64,000 bases of DNA from Octopus vulgaris (GCA_951406725.2 OX597830.1:50406001-50470000); one strand, 5' to 3'. Counted from the first letter of the stretch, positions 7,730-64,000 are shown. Numbers and translations: made by a program. The notes: a model not told the origin generated them from the letters alone.

Positions 7730-8572
7730 GGTAAAGTTTCCCTCCCAAGTTATATAGACTGATAGGGTTTCCATGGTTGATATTATTCTCCACTTAGACG
7801 GGACACGAAAGTTTTCCCATGAGAGTTCCGGACCCCGGTAATGAACTCATTTGCATACAGCCAATCAGAGCTCACCTTGCCCTTGTTGACAAGTTAACAA
7901 AAACATTGTATCAAGAAAACTCAAGACGAAGAACGGTGTTGTAAATCGACCGATCGCCAAGTTATGCCTGGTTTTAGAAAGAGACAATTAGATAGATTTG
8001 CATCTATACCTATTATCGGAATTTGTTATGGGCCCCATGTGGTAAAGATGTGGATGGGATAAATGTGGGTAGAGGGTGATGTGCTAGCAACCATTTCTTC
8101 TTACTGTTTTACAAAGTGAACAATAACACAAATAACTACGCAGAGGCAGTCATGTTTGAAAAAAGAACAAGAAGCGTTATTAAAAGAGAAAAGAAGAACG
8201 GTCATTCCTTATCCAAGTGACCTTGTCTTATCGCCCATCACTTGTTATACTCATAAATTAGTTTGATAGTTGAGGTCTGATTGGCTGTATGCAAATGAGC
8301 TTATAACTGGGGTTCTGAACTCTCGTGGGTCTGATTGGCTGTATGCAAATGAGCTTATAACGGGGGTCCGGAACTCTCGTGGGGAAAAAAATTCGCTGAC
8401 GGGACGCCGGTCCGTCGTAGGATTATTCAATTTTTACCAGCTGAGTGGACTGGAGTAACGGAAAATGAAGTGTTTTGTCCAAGAACACAACGGATCACCC
8501 GATCCAGGAATCGAAACAACAATCTTACGATCATAAGTTCAACACACTAACCATTAAACCACGCGCCTCCAC
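7730..8572 (-). mobile_element. Old tRNA-derived SINE split by the MITE at 7805-8397
   Basis: Minus-strand head (GGAGGCGCGTGGTTTAATGGTTAG…GTTTCGATTCCTGG) at ~8500-8572; central GTGTTCTTGGACAAAACACTT shared with family D (63.1-63.6 kb); remainder at 7730-7804. Confidence 0.65.
7805..8397. mobile_element. MITE / non-autonomous DNA transposon with ~60-bp TIRs and a 6-8-bp target-site duplication
   Basis: Left end ACGAAAGTTTTCCCATGAGAGTTCCGGACCCC…ATTTGCATACAGCCAATCAGA is inverted at the right end (8328-8397). GACGGGAC is repeated at 7797-7804 and 8398-8405. The inner right TIR is tandemly duplicated (54-bp unit). Confidence 0.8.
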
Positions 8573-17706: not shown

Positions 17707-17852
17707 ATATATCCTTTAAGTTTGTTTACAGGAAACGTTTTGAATATGCATATAAAAGCACCTGTTTGTCAGGCTGTAGCTAGCGTAATAGAACAGGAGC
17801 TTTTTATATGCATATTGAAAACGTTTCCCGTAGACAAACTTAAATGATATAT
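17707..17852. repeat. Long imperfect inverted repeat (MITE-like hairpin) with ~60-bp arms and a 25-nt loop
   Basis: 17707-17766 versus 17792-17852: few mismatches and one indel. Confidence 0.85.
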
Positions 17853-19146: not shown

Positions 19147-19204
<58 letters not shown>

Positions 19205-19209
<5 letters not shown>

Positions 19210-19415
19210 TATAATTAAGGTTGTCTAAGAGATACCACAACTCTAGAAATAGCAGCCAAAACTTGACTCTGAAACCACATTAAATGTTCATACAGCACCA
19301 GGAGAGAAGACAAAGAGACATGTGCTGTATGAACATTTATTGTGGTTTCCGAGTCAAGTTTTGGCTGCTATTTCTAGCGTGGTGGTATCTCTTAGATACC
19401 CTTAATTATGATTTT
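19205..19415. repeat. 94-bp-arm inverted repeat with a 23-nt loop, directly after a (TA)n run
   Basis: 19205-19298 versus 19322-19415: 7 mismatches by manual alignment. Confidence 0.9.
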
Positions 19416-19495
19416 AATAATTAATTATTACCTTCGAGGTTTTTATTCTCATGCTAGCTACCTAATAAGATCGGTATTTTAAATAACGATCTTAT

Positions 19496-19527
<32 letters not shown>

Positions 19528-19530
<3 letters not shown>

Positions 19531-21280
19531 TGGACTTCTTTGCCGCCTCACCTATAACCAGCGAGGCGGTTACAACAGAATGTATTGACATTAGCGAAAA
19601 AGATGTCCTACTAGCCATAGATGAAGTGGACACAAACTCAGCTGCTGGTCCAGACGGTTTCCCAGCCATCCTCCTCAAAGCGTGTAAGCATGCCCTGGCA
19701 AAACCCCTCAAGATTCTCACCCAGAGCTTTCTTGCGAATGGCAAACTGCCAAGCAAGCTGAAGGAGGGAATAATATGCCCAATACATAAAGGGAGAAGTA
19801 GAGCAGATGCCAAAAACTATAGGCTTATCTCTCTGACTTCACACATCAGCAAAGTCATGGAACGGATAGTCAGAAAGAAACTAATCGCATTCCTTGAGGA
19901 AAATAACTTGCTGAGTAATACCCAGCATGGTTTTCGACCAGGTAGGAGCTGCCTGACCCAGCTCTTACAGCATTATGACTGGGTGTTGAGGCAGTTACTC
20001 AACAAATCAAATGTGGACGTAATCTACCTTGATTTTGCAAAAGCTTTTAACAAGGTGGATCATGGTATGATATGCCACAAACTATATGACCTCGGCATAG
20101 CTGGAAAACTTAGAGTGTGGTTGCATGACTTCTTGAAAGATAGGAGTCAGGCAGTAGTGGTTAATGGAGCAACCTCTATGAACACACAAATAGTGAGCGG
20201 TGTTCCACAGGGCACTATCTTGGGACCACTGCTTTTTATAGTGGCCTTCTCAGATATGCCCTCAAATGCCCGGATAGCCACTCTGGCCAGCTATGCAGAC
20301 GATACGAAAGTCTCGCAGAAAATACAGAACCCCAGCGATGTTGCACACCTGCAGCAGGAGTTGAACTCAATCTACAGATGGGCTGAGGATAATAATATGC
20401 AGTTTAATGCTGAAAAATTCCAGGCCCTGCGCTACCAGCATCCAAAACTGAATATTAAACTTACAGGATACACCGGTCCACAGGGAATTTCAATCCAAGA
20501 GCCTAAGTCTGTGAGGGACCTGGGTATCGACATGAGTGACGATACCTCTTTCCAAGTGCACATTACCAGGATGGCGACAAAGTGCAGACGACTGGCTGGG
20601 TGGATCCTAAGAACATTCAGAACCAGAGATAAGGAAACCATGATGGTCCTCTGACGGACATTCGTCCTCAGTCGCCTGGATTACTGCTCACAGCTATGGT
20701 CACCCACCAGTGTAAAATTAACAGCGGACCTTGAAGCAATCCAGAGAAGATTCACAAAGAAGATCATCTCTTTGCAACAGCTCAGCTGCTGGGAAAGGTT
20801 GAAACAGCTAAGACTCTACTCCCTGGAGAGAAGACGGGAGAGGTATACAGTAATATATGTCTGGAAGATCCTGGAAGGAATTGTGCCAAATTTTGGCATT
20901 GTAAGCAACACCAATGCTAGAACGGGACGACACTGCATAGTGCCAAAGATCCCAGCAATGCCATCACGCTTCAGGACCAGCTTCTGCAACAGCCTGGGTT
21001 TCAAGGGCCCACAGCTTTTTAATATTCTCCCAAAGAGTCTGAGGAACTTGCACAAAGTGGATGTAGCGGTTTTTAAATCAAAGCTGGACATCTTCCTGTC
21101 AAGAGTCCCAGATGAACCTACTTCACGGCAGGAGGTGCAAATGAGAGTAGCTATATCAAACTCTATTTTTCACCAAGTGCCACATATTAGACGAGATTCG
21201 TCGTAATAACAGTGTAGCACAAGACGGCGGTGCATCAGCATGGCCGCAGCTCTGAGCTGAAACTAGGAAAAAAAAATAAA
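19528..21280 (+). mobile_element. 5'-truncated CR1-like LINE (RT domain, C-terminus and 3' tail) inserted in (TA)n
   Basis: RT motifs GPDG, NYRLISLTS, QHGFRPGRSC, YLDFAKAF, GVPQGTILGPLLF, YADDTK, RDLG, then LDYCSQLWSP and YSLERRRER. (TA)n on both flanks; A-rich end. Confidence 0.93.
19530..21206 (+). pseudogene. LINE ORF2 reverse transcriptase (partial) with a single in-frame TGA at 20652-20654
   Basis: ORFs 19530-20654 and 20772-21206 are in the same frame and the gap translates openly (RTFVLSRLDYCSQLWSP…). No endonuclease domain is present. Confidence 0.9.
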
Positions 21281-27578: not shown

Positions 27579-27844
27579 CACTCTCACACACGCTCATAGT
27601 ATGAACAATCTGAACATAAAAGAACAATCTGAATCGCAATCATACAAACTGACGAAAAATGTAAACAAATAATACATACAAACATGCAGTCATGCACATA
27701 TACGTACCTACAAATGCATGTCTTTCTTTCTAAGAACATACACTTATATATGTAATATATATATAAATACATATATATATATGCACTCACATATATATAT
27801 ACACACATATGTACGTATATGTGTGTATATACGTACATACTACC

Positions 27845-28270
27845 TCCCAACCCGGCTCGTTCCCCTGCTCCCGCCCACGTTGCCGCACTTGCCCTTACCT
27901 CTCCAACACCACCCTCCTCACTAGCACCCATCATCGACCCTATCGCATCATCAACTCCTTCACCTGCACCTCCAGCAATATTATCTATTGCGTCTCTTGC
28001 TCTCTCTGCCATTCCTTGTACATCGGACAAACGGGACGCCGCTTGGCTGACCGGTTCGCGGAACACCTTCGTGACATCCACCTTGCGAACGACACACCGG
28101 TCTCACGCCATTTCCGCTCCACCGGTCACTCCTTGCAACACCTGTCTGTGTTCGGTTTGTCCTTACACAGAGGCCATCCGGATTCCCGTTTGCGCCGTGA
28201 ACAGGAATTAATCTTCTCTCTTCGCTCTTATACGCCATATGGTCTCAACTCTCCCCTCCTCCTCATCTAA
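27845..28270 (+). CDS. Penelope-like GIY-YIG endonuclease domain (partial ORF)
   Basis: FPCSRPRCRTC Cys linker, TCTSSNIIYCVSCSLCHSLYIGQTGRRLADRFAEH…PVSRHF…H…RLRREQELI…PYGLN; catalytic Y, R, E and N positions are present. Confidence 0.88.
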   Translation, partial: SQPGSFPCSRPRCRTCPYLSNTTLLTSTHHRPYRIINSFTCTSSNIIYCVSCSLCHSLYIGQTGRRLADRFAEHLRDIHLANDTPVSRHFRSTGHSLQHLSVFGLSLHRGHPDSRLRREQELIFSLRSYTPYGLNSPLLLI

Positions 28271-28918
28271 CCCCCCTCTTCCCCCTCCTCACCTACTTTT
28301 CCCCCCGACCCCTACTTCTCTTCAGTCCTTCATCCTTTCACCCCTACTCCCCTTCCCTTCTTCCATCTTTCTCCCTCCCTCCTTCCCTCTTCCCATTCCC
28401 TCTGCTCCCTCACTCCCCTTCTCTCTCCCTCTCTCTCCCCCTCTTCCCCTCTCCCTCTTTCCTCCTTCCTCCTCCCCTCCCCCTTCCTTCTCCCCCCTCT
28501 CTCCCTCCCCCTCTCTCCCTCCTCTTCTCCCCCTCTTCTCCCCCCTCCCCTCTTCTCCCTCTTCTTCTCTCTCCACACTACACCACACGACTTTACACAT
28601 CACATCATATATGATGTGCCATACTAATACATACACCAACTAATACATACTAATACATACTAATACATACTAATACATACACCAACCCTATACATACACA
28701 CGTCCAGACTTCTCATACGCACTAATACTCTCTCATACACACACACACACACCCTTATGTTGGAGTAGGTCATTCAACCCTATTATCTCCCCTAATTTCG
28801 CTCTCGCGTCTCATGTTTGATCTTTGACTTCTGGCCGAAATCAGATCGCCATGTTGATTCGTTAGTTACTGCACGCATTTTTTTCTCTCCTTCTTTCTGT
28901 GTTTTTTTTCTCTGTGTA

Positions 28919-28956
28919 TCTTTCTGTTGAAGAGCGTAGGCTCGAAACGTTAAAGA
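28919..28956 (+). ncRNA. Minimal type I hammerhead-like motif with a core variant (CUGUUGA)
   Basis: TCTTT-CTGTTGA-A-GAGC(GTAG)GCTC-GAAA-CG-TT-AAAGA: stem I TCTTT/AAAGA, stem II GAGC/GCTC, palindromic AACGTT. A6 is U. Confidence 0.6.
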
Positions 28957-29214
28957 CTTGTTTTATTTATATTTCCTGGAACGTAAACAAGTATGTGTGT
29001 TTGTGTGAGAGAGTTGTGAGTGAGAAAGAGAGTGCGTGAGAGAGTGAGTGTATGTGTGTATGTATTATTTACTTGCATAGCCATCACAATTTATTCTACG
29101 TTTTAATAGGAAATGCAGAAATGATTGATAAATTCTGATTCCCGTTGAATGTATTATAAAGTGAGCATGAAATACGTTCTTAAGCAGGCGTGAAAAATTT
29201 TTTTTATAAAACGT

Positions 29215-35875: not shown

Positions 35876-36182
35876 TGATTTCGATATTTGGCACAAGGCC
35901 AGCAAGTTCAGGAGATGGTGTAAGTCGATTATATCGGCTCCAGTGCTCAACTGGTACTTGATTTATCGATCCCAAAAGGATGAAAGGTAAAGTCGACCTT
36001 GGTGGAATTTGAATACAGAACGTAGCAAAAGCCGAAATATCGCTACGTTCTGAGTTCAAATTCCGCCGAGTTTGATTTTACCTTTTATCCTTTCGGGGTG
36101 TTGATAAATTAAGTACCAGTGAAATATCATCCGAAAAGATAAAGGACAAAGTCGACCTCGGCGGAATTTGAACTCAGAACGT
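35876..36182. mobile_element. SINE family B segments in alternating orientation (-/+/-)
   Basis: 35876-36040 minus, 36041-36125 plus, 36127-36182 minus. Confidence 0.8.
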
Positions 36183-38995: not shown

Positions 38996-39268
38996 AGTAA
39001 ATGTAATAAAACTCATTAAGGAATCATAAATCCGATTAAAATACTGGTTAGTTACCAATCTAAAGAAAGATCAACTATAAGGTAACCAAATAAACCGTGG
39101 TTCATATATATATAAATTTAAAGAGTAAGGAAAAAATGGACAGGTAATTAATAAATAATATTTCAGAGATGTTGCCATATTTCATAATTAATAATAGATA
39201 ATTTCATTAATAATTACCTCTCCATTCTCGCCTTATTCTTTAACTATATATATATATATATATATACA

Positions 39269-59370: not shown

Positions 59371-59757
59371 TAGTACTCCACCACATTATGAAGAAATAAC
59401 AGGCCTGTCTCAATCCTACAGCCAAATATGGCATATAGAAGCTTGTACTCATACATGCATGTACATCACCAGACGATTTTAAAACTGAGTAGATAATTTT
59501 GGTCCTAGTTCAAGTGACTCTGATGCTTGGGTTTCATCTGAGTGATTTTGTCCATTAATTCAATTCTCATTTCTTCCCAACAGCCTTATGACCCATAAAC
59601 CTGATGTGGCACGTTGAGGTATCCAATGCAGAAGAGCCTACGCCAAACATTTCCTTTCAAATATTTCTGAAGATTGTTGGAGTTGGTTCTGCACGTTTGG
59701 TACGAAACCAGATTGGTAGTTTGTCTGACATGAGACAATAATATAGTACGATTAGCA

Positions 59758-59793
<36 letters not shown>

Positions 59794-59844
59794 GATGTAT
59801 GTATATGAATAAACATACACATGCACAGCAAACGTATGCACATG

Positions 59845-59890
<46 letters not shown>

Positions 59891-60421
59891 AGTTTGTACA
59901 TATGTATGTGTATGTGTTTGTGTGTTTGTGCCTGTGTGTGTATATGTGTGTTTGTGTCTGTGTGTGTGTGTGTGTAGCTAGAGGAGGAACGAGAAAGAGA
60001 GGGAGATGTATGTTTGTATTAGAGACCGAGTGTTTATGCCTACTCCCACATCTAAGACTTATTAAAATTTGAATTAAATAGACCAAGATTGTAATTCTTG
60101 GATTTTCCTTAATCTTCCTCTAACATGGATTATCTTATTTATCAAAGTTCCAGTATTTACCGAAAACCAAAAATGCCATGACGAAGGAAGAAAAGAAGTC
60201 GAAGAAGAAATCGAAGGCATTTGGTCTAATGAAAGTAATAACATTAGCGGATTAACGAATCTTCTTCATTTCCTTAATTAGGTTTACGAAGAATTTAAGG
60301 AATATGTAAAAGGCAAGAAAGAATGAAGAATTCGTTTCAAAACTTATAAACTTGTTTCTTAATCAGCAGCATTTACTTGAGTGGGTATGGAGTGACTCAG
60401 AGAATGTGGAGTGAGCGCAGG

Positions 60422-60472
<51 letters not shown>

Positions 60473-60474
<2 letters not shown>

Positions 60475-61124
60475 CATTATTGGTGAATTGAAGAAATGGA
60501 GCTGAACGCAGATTGAACAGAAATCGTTTTATTTCATTCTACACGTGTTTCGAAAGGCACAAATTACCAAAATCCGATGGAATAATGGGACCATATTGTG
60601 TCTTTCTCTTCAGGAAGAAAATAGGAAATCCGTTGGAAAAACAAAAACAGAACAGAGGCGGAGCAAAAACAAATCGAACTATGCTCCTAAGAGCCCATGG
60701 CGAAACTGTTTATCAGTGTATGTTGAGAACCGGTGGCTGAAGAATTCAACGGGTCAAGCATCGGTCAATCATGTGGGTGAGGGTGCGTAGATGTTCTTTG
60801 TGACCGAGAATAAAGTTCTGACTATTTAAAGAATATTGGATGTTTTATAAGGGGCGAGAAAAAATCTACTTAGAGACGTGTGTGTGTGTATACTGTTCTA
60901 TATATGTGTGTGTTGGCGTAGGGGTAGAAAACATTTTTTGTGTACGTGTGTGCGTTTGATCGTTCGGCTGTCAGTGGCTACTGCCGTGATAACCGTTGGG
61001 TGGCAGAAAAAAAAATATATATCATGTTTTATGTGTGTGTGTGTTCATCTAAGCCTGCCTTGTCAAGGAAACCCCCCGCTGTGAAAAAACCAAGCCCCGT
61101 TTGTCTTACAGGAGTAATTCCCCT
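60473..61124 (-). repeat. pLTR / inverted-repeat left arm (652 bp)
   Basis: Reverse complement of 62249-62903; the only difference I found is an A9 versus T12 run. Confidence 0.95.
60530..60623 (-). ncRNA. Type I hammerhead ribozyme (minus strand, sense to the ORF)
   Basis: Exact reverse complement of 62753-62846. Confidence 0.82.
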
Positions 61125-61198
61125 TGCAGTGGTTAATCGTAGATATCTTAAAGGCTATTTCAGAATTTGTTACCAAGGGCTATGGGTGCCGGTATTAT

Positions 61199-62248
61199 TT
61201 ATAAACGATATTTAAAAGCCAGATAAGTGTAACGCCGCCAATGGGGGCATCGAAAAGCCGACTGTAAAAGCCCGTTTACCATCCGGCCTCTGGCAAACAA
61301 AATATGGAAGAGTTCGGAGACACAAAGGTTGCACTGCCTTCTGCCCCTATCAAATGGGAGGGCCACCGACAAAATGGACCATTCCAGCCTGTAGCTTAAG
61401 TTCGTATCCTTCAGTCGCCATATTAGCTTACTGAGTCCCGTGGTCTGGCGCTTGTTCATGTCCCGAAAAGTTGCGTAATGGTTGGAGACACGCAAAGACA
61501 ATCTTGAGGATGAGGCCCCTACATAAGTGAAGACATCTGAGTCCGTGTAAACCTTGCATTGGTAGACGGCGTTTTTGATCTTGGAGTTCGCCGACGTGAA
61601 TCTAATTCTGCTAGGATTAGTTTCTGAAATTAGAACTGCGTTCCTGTCACTATATTCGTTCCGAGACCTGCAGCCGCTTACTACTCTATTTTCCACTACG
61701 TCACTATTAACTATAGGAATAACCCCTGATTCTCCACTATCTATCAAAGTGCTGTCATTGCTACTGCCCGTGGTGCTGCTATAGCGGGAAATGATGCTGG
61801 GGATGCTATTGGGGCTCTCTACCCTACTCCCATTGTTACATTCAACCACAACACCCCTATTTATAACTATACCCCTAGTAGGTACTCCCTGGCTGGAGCT
61901 GAGATTATGTGTCACTGTACTGGCTCTCATATCATTATTACTACTATAATTATTCCTACTGAGCATTAAACCGGGAGCGGAAGAGGCTGTGCCTCCGGAA
62001 AAAGGTGATAGGGTCTTAGTGAGTAGCCTATTATTATGGGAGGCGATTATCTGGGCGAGGTTTTTAGTGTTGGAGAAAGCTATCCTAACTTTATGCGAGT
62101 TAACCGTGGAGTAATATTTGGAATTTCTGGGGAAGTTATTGGCGATGGCTTGTCTAAACATGAGGGGGAGGTTAGTTCTAATCTGCTTACCAAAGGGGAT
62201 TACAAACCATATATGCTTATTCCTATCAGTGTGATGGATCGGGACGCC
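61199..62248 (-). CDS. Penelope-like ORF C-terminus: end of RT thumb region, long linker and GIY-YIG endonuclease (5'-truncated, no stops)
   Basis: HIWFVIPFGKQIRTN…NFP…VRIAFSNTKNLAQIIASHNNRLL, then AVYQCKV…YVGASS…LRVSNH…TGLSKLIWRLKD…WSIL…CNLCVSE…MVN…RCPH. The computed start at 62272 lies inside the inverted arm and is probably not a real start. Confidence 0.88.
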   Translation of the reverse strand, partial: GVPIHHTDRNKHIWFVIPFGKQIRTNLPLMFRQAIANNFPRNSKYYSTVNSHKVRIAFSNTKNLAQIIASHNNRLLTKTLSPFSGGTASSAPGLMLSRNNYSSNNDMRASTVTHNLSSSQGVPTRGIVINRGVVVECNNGSRVESPNSIPSIISRYSSTTGSSNDSTLIDSGESGVIPIVNSDVVENRVVSGCRSRNEYSDRNAVLISETNPSRIRFTSANSKIKNAVYQCKVYTDSDVFTYVGASSSRLSLRVSNHYATFRDMNKRQTTGLSKLIWRLKDTNLSYRLEWSILSVALPFDRGRRQCNLCVSELFHILFARGRMVNGLLQSAFRCPHWRRYTYLAFKYRL

Positions 62249-62903
62249 AGGGGAATTACTCCTGTAAGACAAACGGGGCTTGGTTTTTTCACAGCGGGGG
62301 GTTTCCTTGACAAGGCAGGCTTAGATGAACACACACACACATAAAACATGATATATATTTTTTTTTTTTCTGCCACCCAACGGTTATCACGGCAGTAGCC
62401 ACTGACAGCCGAACGATCAAACGCACACACGTACACAAAAAATGTTTTCTACCCCTACGCCAACACACACATATATAGAACAGTATACACACACACACGT
62501 CTCTAAGTAGATTTTTTCTCGCCCCTTATAAAACATCCAATATTCTTTAAATAGTCAGAACTTTATTCTCGGTCACAAAGAACATCTACGCACCCTCACC
62601 CACATGATTGACCGATGCTTGACCCGTTGAATTCTTCAGCCACCGGTTCTCAACATACACTGATAAACAGTTTCGCCATGGGCTCTTAGGAGCATAGTTC
62701 GATTTGTTTTTGCTCCGCCTCTGTTCTGTTTTTGTTTTTCCAACGGATTTCCTATTTTCTTCCTGAAGAGAAAGACACAATATGGTCCCATTATTCCATC
62801 GGATTTTGGTAATTTGTGCCTTTCGAAACACGTGTAGAATGAAATAAAACGATTTCTGTTCAATCTGCGTTCAGCTCCATTTCTTCAATTCACCAATAAT
62901 GTT
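62249..62903 (+). repeat. Inverted pLTR right arm (655 bp)
   Basis: Reverse complement of 60473-61124. Confidence 0.95.
62753..62846 (+). ncRNA. Type I hammerhead ribozyme with long stem II
   Basis: Stem I TATTTTCTTC/GAATGAAATA; core CTGAAGA (62763-62769); stem II GAAAGACACAA…TTGTGCCTTTC; GAAA (62825-62828); palindromic stem III ACACGTGT; GUA cleavage triplet (after A62836). Confidence 0.82.
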
Positions 62904-63053
62904 CTAATTTCAATTATCCGCACCAACGCACGGTTGCAACACCATATGGTTGTACCTCCAACCGTGCTGTTTTACTGCTGTGATTTTTGCTACTAAGGTA
63001 TCGGTTAAACTTTTGATTAATCTACTACAAGATTATTCATCTTTCTATTTCAC

Positions 63054-63095
<42 letters not shown>

Positions 63096-63101
63096 AAGGA
63101 T

Positions 63102-63648
63102 AAAGACCCCCTTCAGTCATGAATGACCATGGGATTGCACCTAGAAAGTTACCCTCCTAGACACAAGTCCGGGCAAGGTTGTTTATGGAAGACCAGCAGT
63201 TGCCCATGCATACCAGCCTCCCTCTCCACGCCACCAGTGTTATCCAAGAGAAAGACAAAGGTCGATACAGCTTGGCACCAGTGACGTCGCAACTCATTTC
63301 TACAGTTGAGTGAACTGGAGCAACGTGAAATAAAGTGCCTTGCTCAAGAACACAACACGCAGCCCGGTCCGGAAAGACCCCCTTCGGTCATTAATGACCA
63401 TGGGATTGCACCTAGAAAGTTACCCTCCTAGACACAAGTCCGGGCAAGGTTGTTTATGGAAGACCAGCAGTCGCCCATGCATACCAGCCTCCCTCCCCAC
63501 GCCACCAGTGTTATCCAAGAGAAAGACAAAGGTCGATACAGCTTGGCACCAGTGACGTCGCAACTCATTTCTACAGCTGAGTGAACTGGAGCAACGTGAA
63601 ATAAAGTGCCTTGCTCAAGAACACAACACGCAGCCCGATCCGGGATTC
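63102..63648 (-). mobile_element. SINE family D, tandem pair of 271-bp units, both truncated in the tRNA head
   Basis: 63102-63372 and 63373-63648 are nearly identical; minus strand has GTGTTCTTGAGCAAGGCACTT (CORE/V-like central motif); flanked by (TA)n. Confidence 0.82.
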
Positions 63649-63684
<36 letters not shown>

Positions 63685-63697
63685 GTATATATAAAAG

Positions 63698-63925
63698 GCG
63701 GCGAGCTGGCAGACACGTTAGAACACCGGGCGAAATGCTTAGCGGTATTTCGTCTGTCGTTACGTTCTGAGTTCACATTCCGCCGAGGTTGACTTTGCCT
63801 TTCATCCTTTCGGAGTCGATAAATAAAGTACCAGTTTCGCACTGAAGGCGATGTAATCGACTTAGTCCCTTTGTCTGTCCTTGTTTGTTCCCTCTATGTT
63901 TAGCCCATTGTGAGCAATAAAGAAA
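63698..63925 (+). mobile_element. SINE family B (complete)
   Basis: GGCGGCGAGCTGGCAGA…CTTTGCCTTTCATCCTTTCGGAGTCGATAAATAAAGTACCAG…GAGCAATAAAGAAAA. Confidence 0.9.
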
Positions 63926-63934
63926 AAAAAAATA

Positions 63935-63994
<60 letters not shown>

Positions 63995-64000
63995 ATCCAA

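Follow-up and report, generated by a model that had tools for sequence, protein, structure and literature searches.

Is a stretch of octopus DNA in which an open GIY-YIG endonuclease frame lies between near-identical inverted repeats a new kind of mobile unit, or the insertion product of an element class that is already known? This question is raised by a locus near the end of a 64,000-nt region of Octopus vulgaris, the whole of which was analyzed and is referred to here as the window. A preliminary description of the locus had read it as a very recent insertion of a Naiad-like family of Penelope-like elements, being either a truncated copy or an endonuclease-only unit.

Anatomy of the insertion

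The coordinates and anatomy of the preliminary description proved to be exact with regard to the arms, the minus-strand frame, the inverted arm, the 153-nt tail and the (TA)n on both sides (Table 1). The arms, 60473-61124 (652 nt) and 62249-62903 (655 nt), aligned without a single substitution and, as had been claimed, differ only at one homopolymer, where there is a 3-nt gap (A9 at 61007-61015 versus T12 at 62358-62369). Consistent with the claim of an inverted copy beside a truncated one, the locus resolves into a 1778-nt and an 808-nt copy on opposite strands whose 3' ends face outward, and these represent two alternative 3' ends, 62903 and 63056. Contigs from other copies of the family match the main copy up to 62250 and the inverted copy from 62249, leaving an overlap of 2 nt. 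The inner edge of the arms is the point at which the inverted copy stopped, and not a fixed terminal repeat.

Table 1. Features of the insertion in window coordinates, with the strand of each and the basis of its assignment
Feature	Position	Strand	Comment and basis
(TA)24 microsatellite	60426..60473	.	Left half of inferred target; sequence, run list
Main copy, 1778 nt	60473..62250	-	5'-truncated inside the RT thumb region; tail-less 3' end
3' untranslated region (pseudo-LTR), 726 nt	60473..61198	-	The inverted copy duplicates 60473-61124
Type I hammerhead motif, main element sense copy	60530..60620	-	Predicted cut 3' of 60540; pattern scan and pairing
GIY-YIG endonuclease domain	61199..61600	-	No CCHH motif; alignment conservation, predicted fold
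Cysteine-free motif in place of the Hydra CxCx5C linker finger	61560..61645	-	Alignment
N/S-rich low-complexity spacer	61645..62010	-	~150 residues
RT thumb region, C-terminal part (WFxxPF block)	62010..62248	-	Same block in the Hydra alignment (PMC8557442 supplement), by eye
Head-to-head junction, 2-nt microhomology	62249..62250	.	Contigs of other copies
Inverted second copy, 808 nt	62249..63056	+	5'-truncated 75 nt downstream of the stop codon; tail-bearing
Type I hammerhead motif, inverted copy	62756..62846	+	Pattern scan and pairing
153-nt tail	62904..63056	+	Family sequence at one end only; hairpin near 62925-62970
(TA)n microsatellite	63058..63086	.	Right half of inferred target; sequence, run list

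The (TA)n context also held up, with a run abutting each end of the element against a background in which runs of at least six units make up 2.1% of the 64-kb window. The left (TA)n was not templated by the element because the element continues differently beyond that end (62904 onward). We infer that a (TA)n target was already present at this locus.

Other repeats were identified in the window. Directly after the right (TA)n are two tandem copies of a 271-nt repeat (63102-63643, 98% identical), presumably SINE-like, and 63690-63930 belongs to another repeat family with several copies in the window. A second, unrelated 5'-truncated Penelope-like copy (27840-28960, plus strand) has a CCHH-type CxxC inside its GIY-YIG core (Pfam E 0.0033), starts beside a TA/TG microsatellite and contains a degenerate minimal hammerhead (28927-28952). 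The remaining observations were a LINE-type reverse transcriptase remnant with open stretches of 374 and 183 codons (19530-21203, plus strand), imperfect MITE-like palindromes of 150-220 nt (17707-17852, 19201-19419, 35950-36120 and 39104-39257) and a promoter-like 54-nt tandem duplicate (8274-8383), whose motifs we take to be a CCAAT box, an octamer motif and a TATA-like word.

The endonuclease frame and its place among Penelope elements

The minus-strand frame is free of stops over 61199-62320 (373 aa) and is the only ORF of more than 110 codons in 59500-64000; the inverted arm, read in antisense, supplies its first 24 codons, and no Met occurs before residue 54. A phmmer search with residues 25-373 gave 2791 hits at E ≤0.001, the best 150 of which were used, and the nuclease alignment comprised 149 of 151 proteins (P0003 and P0045 were left out). 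Residues Y253, Y266, G268, R277, H281, E336 and N349 were each kept in 133-149 rows of this alignment, and the domain also contains CxxC (330/333) and CxH (358/360). The model of the nuclease (mean pLDDT 87.2) had as its best structural match the catalytic domain of I-TevI (Z 10.3, rmsd 2.4, 89 aligned), with T4 EndoII at Z 9.0. With all catalytic residues kept and this match in fold, the identification of a GIY-YIG nuclease was confirmed. Foldseek with the nuclease model returned nothing at E ≤0.001 (best E 0.022), and its ranks 1-7, all weaker than E 0.001, were T4 EndoII and Hpy188I, which we take to be GIY-YIG enzymes. Pfam made no GIY-YIG domain call on the window protein, a PDB sequence search with the profile gave 0 matches, and a single-protein query of metagenome loci gave 126 pattern matches, 0 of them confirmed.

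In every long relative, the block that follows the RT core is matched by residues 38-100 of the window protein, and it is on the basis of this match that the domain order is assigned, from sequence, as RT thumb, linker, nuclease, stop and 3' repeat. An upstream YxDD was present in all 15 relatives of at least 600 aa, and DK[TS] in 14 of the 15, these being more distant relatives. The window copy has no RT active site, and it cannot move by itself.

The designation of the element as Penelope-like was supported by the GIY-YIG residues, the hammerhead motif in the pseudo-LTR, the inverted truncated copy and the one-sided tail. The further designation as Naiad-like had to be revised. As set out in the portion of Craig et al. 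2021 (PMC8557442) available to us, in Naiad elements the nuclease is N-terminal and carries CCHH, and a canonical hammerhead is lacking; in the Hydra clade the nuclease is C-terminal and without CCHH, CxxC and CxH flank the catalytic E and N, a hammerhead is present and insertion is into (TA)n; an inverted 5'-truncated copy is listed there for one Hydra-clade element, Penelope-13_HM. In the literature searched, the Hydra clade was found described only in that paper. The window element resembles the Hydra clade in that the RT thumb is followed by a C-terminal GIY-YIG domain with no CCHH, CxxC (C330, C333) before the catalytic Glu and CxH (C358, H360) after the Asn, and also in the hammerhead motif of its 3' repeat, its (TA)n flanks and its inverted 5'-truncated copy. 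A divergent Naiad family would account for the (TA)n preference, the inverted truncated copies, the one-sided tail and the presence in octopus, all of which are described for Naiads, including octopus Naiads. However, the C-terminal nuclease lacking CCHH, the presence of a hammerhead motif and the position of the RT ahead of the nuclease in all long relatives leave virtually no likelihood for that reading.

There are also features in which the element departs from the Hydra clade. The CxCx5C linker is absent, with no Cys in the 31 residues before Y253, and the thumb-to-nuclease linker has 153 aa versus a median of 33 in 53 relatives. In addition, the 3' untranslated region has 726 nt, stem II of the hammerhead motif encloses a 33-nt inner region, the tail is 153 nt versus the 30-40 nt described, and the element, already about 3.0 kb in X9 record 28, seems longer than Hydra elements, which are usually under 3 kb. 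Of the relatives, 129 extend over the 32 residues that precede the first catalytic Tyr, and at least three cysteines occur there in 113 of them and two or fewer in 16; five of those 16, and also the short P0016, share the cysteine-free motif with the window protein, and in the remaining 11 the motif is not shared and the region looks, by eye, broken or expanded. The seven cysteine-free proteins formed one group (SH-aLRT 98) in a quick tree of 50 rows without bootstrap, which was restricted to the nuclease core because including the cysteine-free motif would be circular; the relatives in it are unnamed but have Hydra motifs. As judged from these sequences, the finger has been replaced by the N/S-rich spacer and the cysteine-free motif in this one seven-protein lineage. 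Because of the missing CxCx5C linker, we classify the element as Hydra-like, that is, as a putative variant lineage of Penelope set apart from standard Hydra members. Hydra-1_Obim, which keeps the finger and has another hammerhead sequence (by eye), is a different family from that of the window.

Our searches of the literature found no account of a finger-less Hydra lineage, and the O. vulgaris repeat library of PMC13282606 may hold the family. The named members of the lineage are Octopus sinensis RefSeq proteins under unrelated names, in keeping with an octopus as the host. More broadly, the octopus RefSeq proteins P0002, P0003, P0004, P0152 and P0189, annotated as "myb-like", "dyrk1-like", "GATA-zinc-finger-like" or "uncharacterised", were observed to be fragments of Hydra-like elements, and their misnaming was probably caused by Asn-rich stretches.

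Other copies of the family and the origin of the inverted arm

At least half of the sampled words were found in 19 of the 24 listed public runs, under two species labels, and four of the runs were compared with 61125-63058, namely the DNA runs X1 and X11 and the presumed RNA runs X2 and X9. These comparisons bear on whether the locus is an endonuclease-only cassette that was amplified between fixed inverted repeats, mobilised in trans or self-homing, and translated from Met54. Such a unit would fit with the 373 open codons and their full set of catalytic residues, with the 320-aa protein containing the whole nuclease that a start at Met54 would give, and with the identical arms, although an open frame is to be expected anyway in a young copy. 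Against it speak other copies of the family. X2 record 17 (1463 nt) has a plain layout in which the ORF runs into the 3' region, and because 17 contigs (3 from X1 and 14 from X11) pass through 62249 into normal 3' sequence, the edge of the arm at that position is no family boundary. Upstream, the frame goes on: one X2 contig runs 141 letters past 62250, and 30 of these letters are 10 open codons (by eye), six of them identical, in register, to residues 220-229 of P0152, and X9 record 28 extends for 1258 nt beyond 62250, which already brings the element to about 3.0 kb. P0152 itself (O. sinensis XP_036366068.1, 544 aa) is 53% identical to window residues 29-302 and has in a single ORF YRDD (33-36), the NFLDVTL block, the thumb, the same spacer and the nuclease; by its layout, YRDD is to be expected some 590 nt upstream of the window junction. 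Like the window copy, it lacks the RWK/DKT region. Both P0152 and P0003 have RT sequence upstream of, and in frame with, the nuclease, and the RT region of P0152 finds 99 further proteins.

The preliminary description had itself proposed the variability of the 5' junction as a test of the endonuclease-only idea. Among 15 joint rows from the four runs, 12 were head-to-head inversions like that of the window, and all 12 differ in position. The main copy has 698-1756 nt in the 11 cases from DNA runs and about 3.0 kb in the one from X9, and the inverted copy reaches from inside the tail to 579 nt; each joint is one contig with a short side of 21-29 letters at 88% likeness, and unknown letters lie between the two sides in 8 of the 11 DNA joints. 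Of the other three rows, one is the ORF continuing naturally into the 3' region, one has a deletion of 54 nt, and one switches strand inside the arm. In view of the varying junctions, the frame running on upstream in X2 and X9, and a relative with RT and nuclease in one ORF, we consider an endonuclease-only unit to be very improbable. The alternative offered in the same description, a truncated copy, is the one favored by the continuation of the frame past 62248/62249 in other copies and by the RT-bearing relative.

Five X11 contigs stop at 62903 and then continue in (TA)n, as at the left end of the window copy. Because of these contigs, and because the tail is family sequence (X2 record 22 equals 62708-63058 without a difference), we assign to the family, from its sequences, two 3' ends 153 nt apart. 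Longer relatives of the frame were also sought directly: the word-index search confirmed 0 of 4213 candidates and retrieved no full-length ORF of the exact family, and the search with the thumb region gave 1 of 70. Summed contig depth, which is not a copy number, was about 2e4 to 1e6 in the DNA runs versus 24-87 for junction contigs, and would suggest thousands of copies of the family; it falls toward the 5' end of the element but cannot rank its parts, and it is given no weight as evidence here.

With regard to the junction in the window itself, none of the 32 listed pieces of 6314 spanned it, the arms differ only in homopolymer length, and complex Penelope insertions are reported to trouble assemblies (PMC8557442, in the part available), all of which would be in keeping with an inverted arm that is an assembly artefact, such as a collapsed or mirrored repeat. 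This explanation is hardly credible given that the arms end differently and both of their ends are family features, that junctions of the same geometry occur in contigs of two DNA runs, and that the arms keep rare alleles and not the family majority.

Our preferred reading, to which we assign a probability of roughly 0.88, is that the locus is a single truncated-plus-inverted insertion of an abundant Hydra-like Penelope. Under the probable scheme for its origin, the protein of a full-length element would nick both strands of (TA)n and prime reverse transcription from each. By analogy with Poseidon, priming on the top strand would start at the tail-less site and stop after 1778 nt, priming on the bottom strand would start at the tail end and stop after 808 nt, and repair would then join the two cDNAs through the 2-nt microhomology. 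We infer the two-strand priming step from Poseidon PAc of Anolis, for which the available text of Frangieh et al. 2024 (PMC11167929) describes how, in vitro, the two strands of AT-rich DNA are each cut and extended and RT begins at two internal sites, the distance between which makes up the tail; the hammerhead is not needed. The likenesses to the window element would thus be an AT-rich target, extension of both strands and a tail lying between two RT start sites; Poseidon PAc differs in belonging to another clade (with a CCHH nuclease) and in its shorter tail.

Other routes to the inversion would be a single template that folded back and primed itself, or two separate insertions that later recombined or were joined by repair. 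For a rotifer, self-priming has been put forward as the origin of inverted Penelope structures (PMC3846280, in the part available), and both arms must come from one template or subfamily because they carry alleles that are rare in the DNA runs; at 62619, for example, another letter accounts for at least 99% of summed depth in both X1 and X11. Yet no palindrome centered on the 62249/62250 junction was found, a point against fold-back priming, the two copies differ in both truncation points and 3' ends, and two independent insertions are unlikely to share rare alleles and to meet exactly. We therefore regard these routes as unlikely, and retain priming from both target strands as the preferred reading.

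Penelope traits described in the accessible parts of PMC8557442 and PMC3846280 include insertion into (TA)n, a hammerhead, a tail at one end only and a 5'-truncated copy in inverted orientation. The Penelopes of Adineta vaga (PMC3846280) share with the window element in-frame inserts rich in Asn, placed either between RT and nuclease or between the RT core and the thumb, as well as an inverted pLTR, an optional tail and microhomology at the 5' junction; they are of another host and family, and the available part of that report does not describe loss of the linker finger. Animal retrozymes, as outlined in the available portion of bioRxiv 10.64898/2026.07.22.740005, are likewise hammerhead-bearing, non-autonomous derivatives of Penelope pLTRs, but are tandem units, whereas the window has one coding copy, which is truncated and paired with an inverted partner.

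Ribozyme motif, age and significance

When the 64-kb window was scanned on both strands for the type I hammerhead pattern, two sites emerged, one per arm, in agreement with the hammerhead that had been placed in the 3' repeat; the predicted motif belongs to the 3' repeat of the family. In the inverted copy (plus strand) the core is at 62763-62769, GAAA at 62825-62828 and the predicted cut after 62836, and the mirror of this core-to-cut span is 60540-60613 (minus strand). Stem II would have 5+5 pairs, stem I 3+4 pairs with a bulge, and stem III two pairs that close a palindrome. None of the 14 Rfam matches up to E=1 was a hammerhead, nearly all of them being on (TA)n, and the minimum-energy fold was other than the catalytic shape (z -0.60). 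Hammerheads with a short palindromic stem III work as dimers and have low activity in vitro, according to the available part of PMC4209133. The two-pair palindrome in stem III suggests that the predicted hammerhead would cut only as a dimer or with the help of a protein.

It had also been proposed that a read-through transcript would form a ~650-bp duplex carrying a sense ribozyme. The duplex stands, with a computed energy of about -1255 kcal/mol for the RNA of both arms. The ribozyme fares less well: since transcription from either strand makes the antisense arm first, the duplex would likely trap the sense ribozyme. The hairpin of the tail (fold z -2.17, with 8 of 200 shuffles equally stable) is a candidate protein-binding or RT start signal. 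Subfamily variants at loose ends in X1, X2 and X9 were observed to keep the 3' arm of this plus-strand hairpin.

The zero arm substitutions give an age bound of 0.46-2.3 Myr at rates of 5 to 1e-9 per site per year, and the octopus calibration in the available part of PMC13282606 (a distance of 0.09 for 25 Myr) gives about 0.6 Myr by hand. The insertion is thus likely, on this sequence evidence, to be under about 1 Myr old, as the claim of a recent insertion had it, with the caveat that its apparent age would be lowered by conversion between the arms. Recent Penelope activity in Octopus vulgaris has already been published (31 families and 336 insertions, with clades unnamed in the part of PMC13282606 available). 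Compared with X2 record 17, the window copy has 9 differences in 971 positions, and its frame stays open for three codons beyond the stop (61208) that accounts for nearly all of the family depth. Of 20 frame variants among the 40 sites listed of 101, the four in the thumb and nuclease were all silent, 9 of the 15 in the spacer were replacements, and one shifts the stop, which may be a slight indication that the source elements were under selection.

Two observations were made on X9, a run that is only presumed to be RNA. Over 61125-63058, T>C changes occurred in 19 of 77 listed places in X9, compared with 11 of 99 for the two DNA runs taken together (post hoc Fisher test, p 0.025); this excess could reflect A-to-I editing of sense transcripts or just alleles. 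Over 62249-62737, X9 records 29 and 31 match the rare alleles of the window, with 1 difference in 280 nt and 0 in 239 nt, respectively. The subfamily of the window is therefore present in this run from another study and, X9 being only presumed RNA, may be the one that is currently transcribed.

The apparent cassette is an ordinary insertion product of a known class and not a new kind of mobile unit. What is new is a Penelope lineage that has no linker finger and whose ends still abut (TA)n. As far as the available text goes, the link that Craig et al. (PMC8557442) draw between the linker finger and (TA)n targeting is one of association only, and a natural lineage without the finger allows finger-driven targeting of microsatellites to be tested. 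Related elements are also a source of mis-annotation, in that four O. sinensis RefSeq proteins (myb-like, dyrk1-like and uncharacterised) are pieces of them. We tentatively propose, as an idea that we hold with less than even confidence, that octopuses harbor a still-mobile Hydra-like lineage in which the finger was swapped for a cysteine-free module while (TA)n targeting was kept, and whose head-to-head insertions would seed duplexes for A-to-I editing. If this is true, microsatellite targeting by Penelope-like elements would not need the finger.
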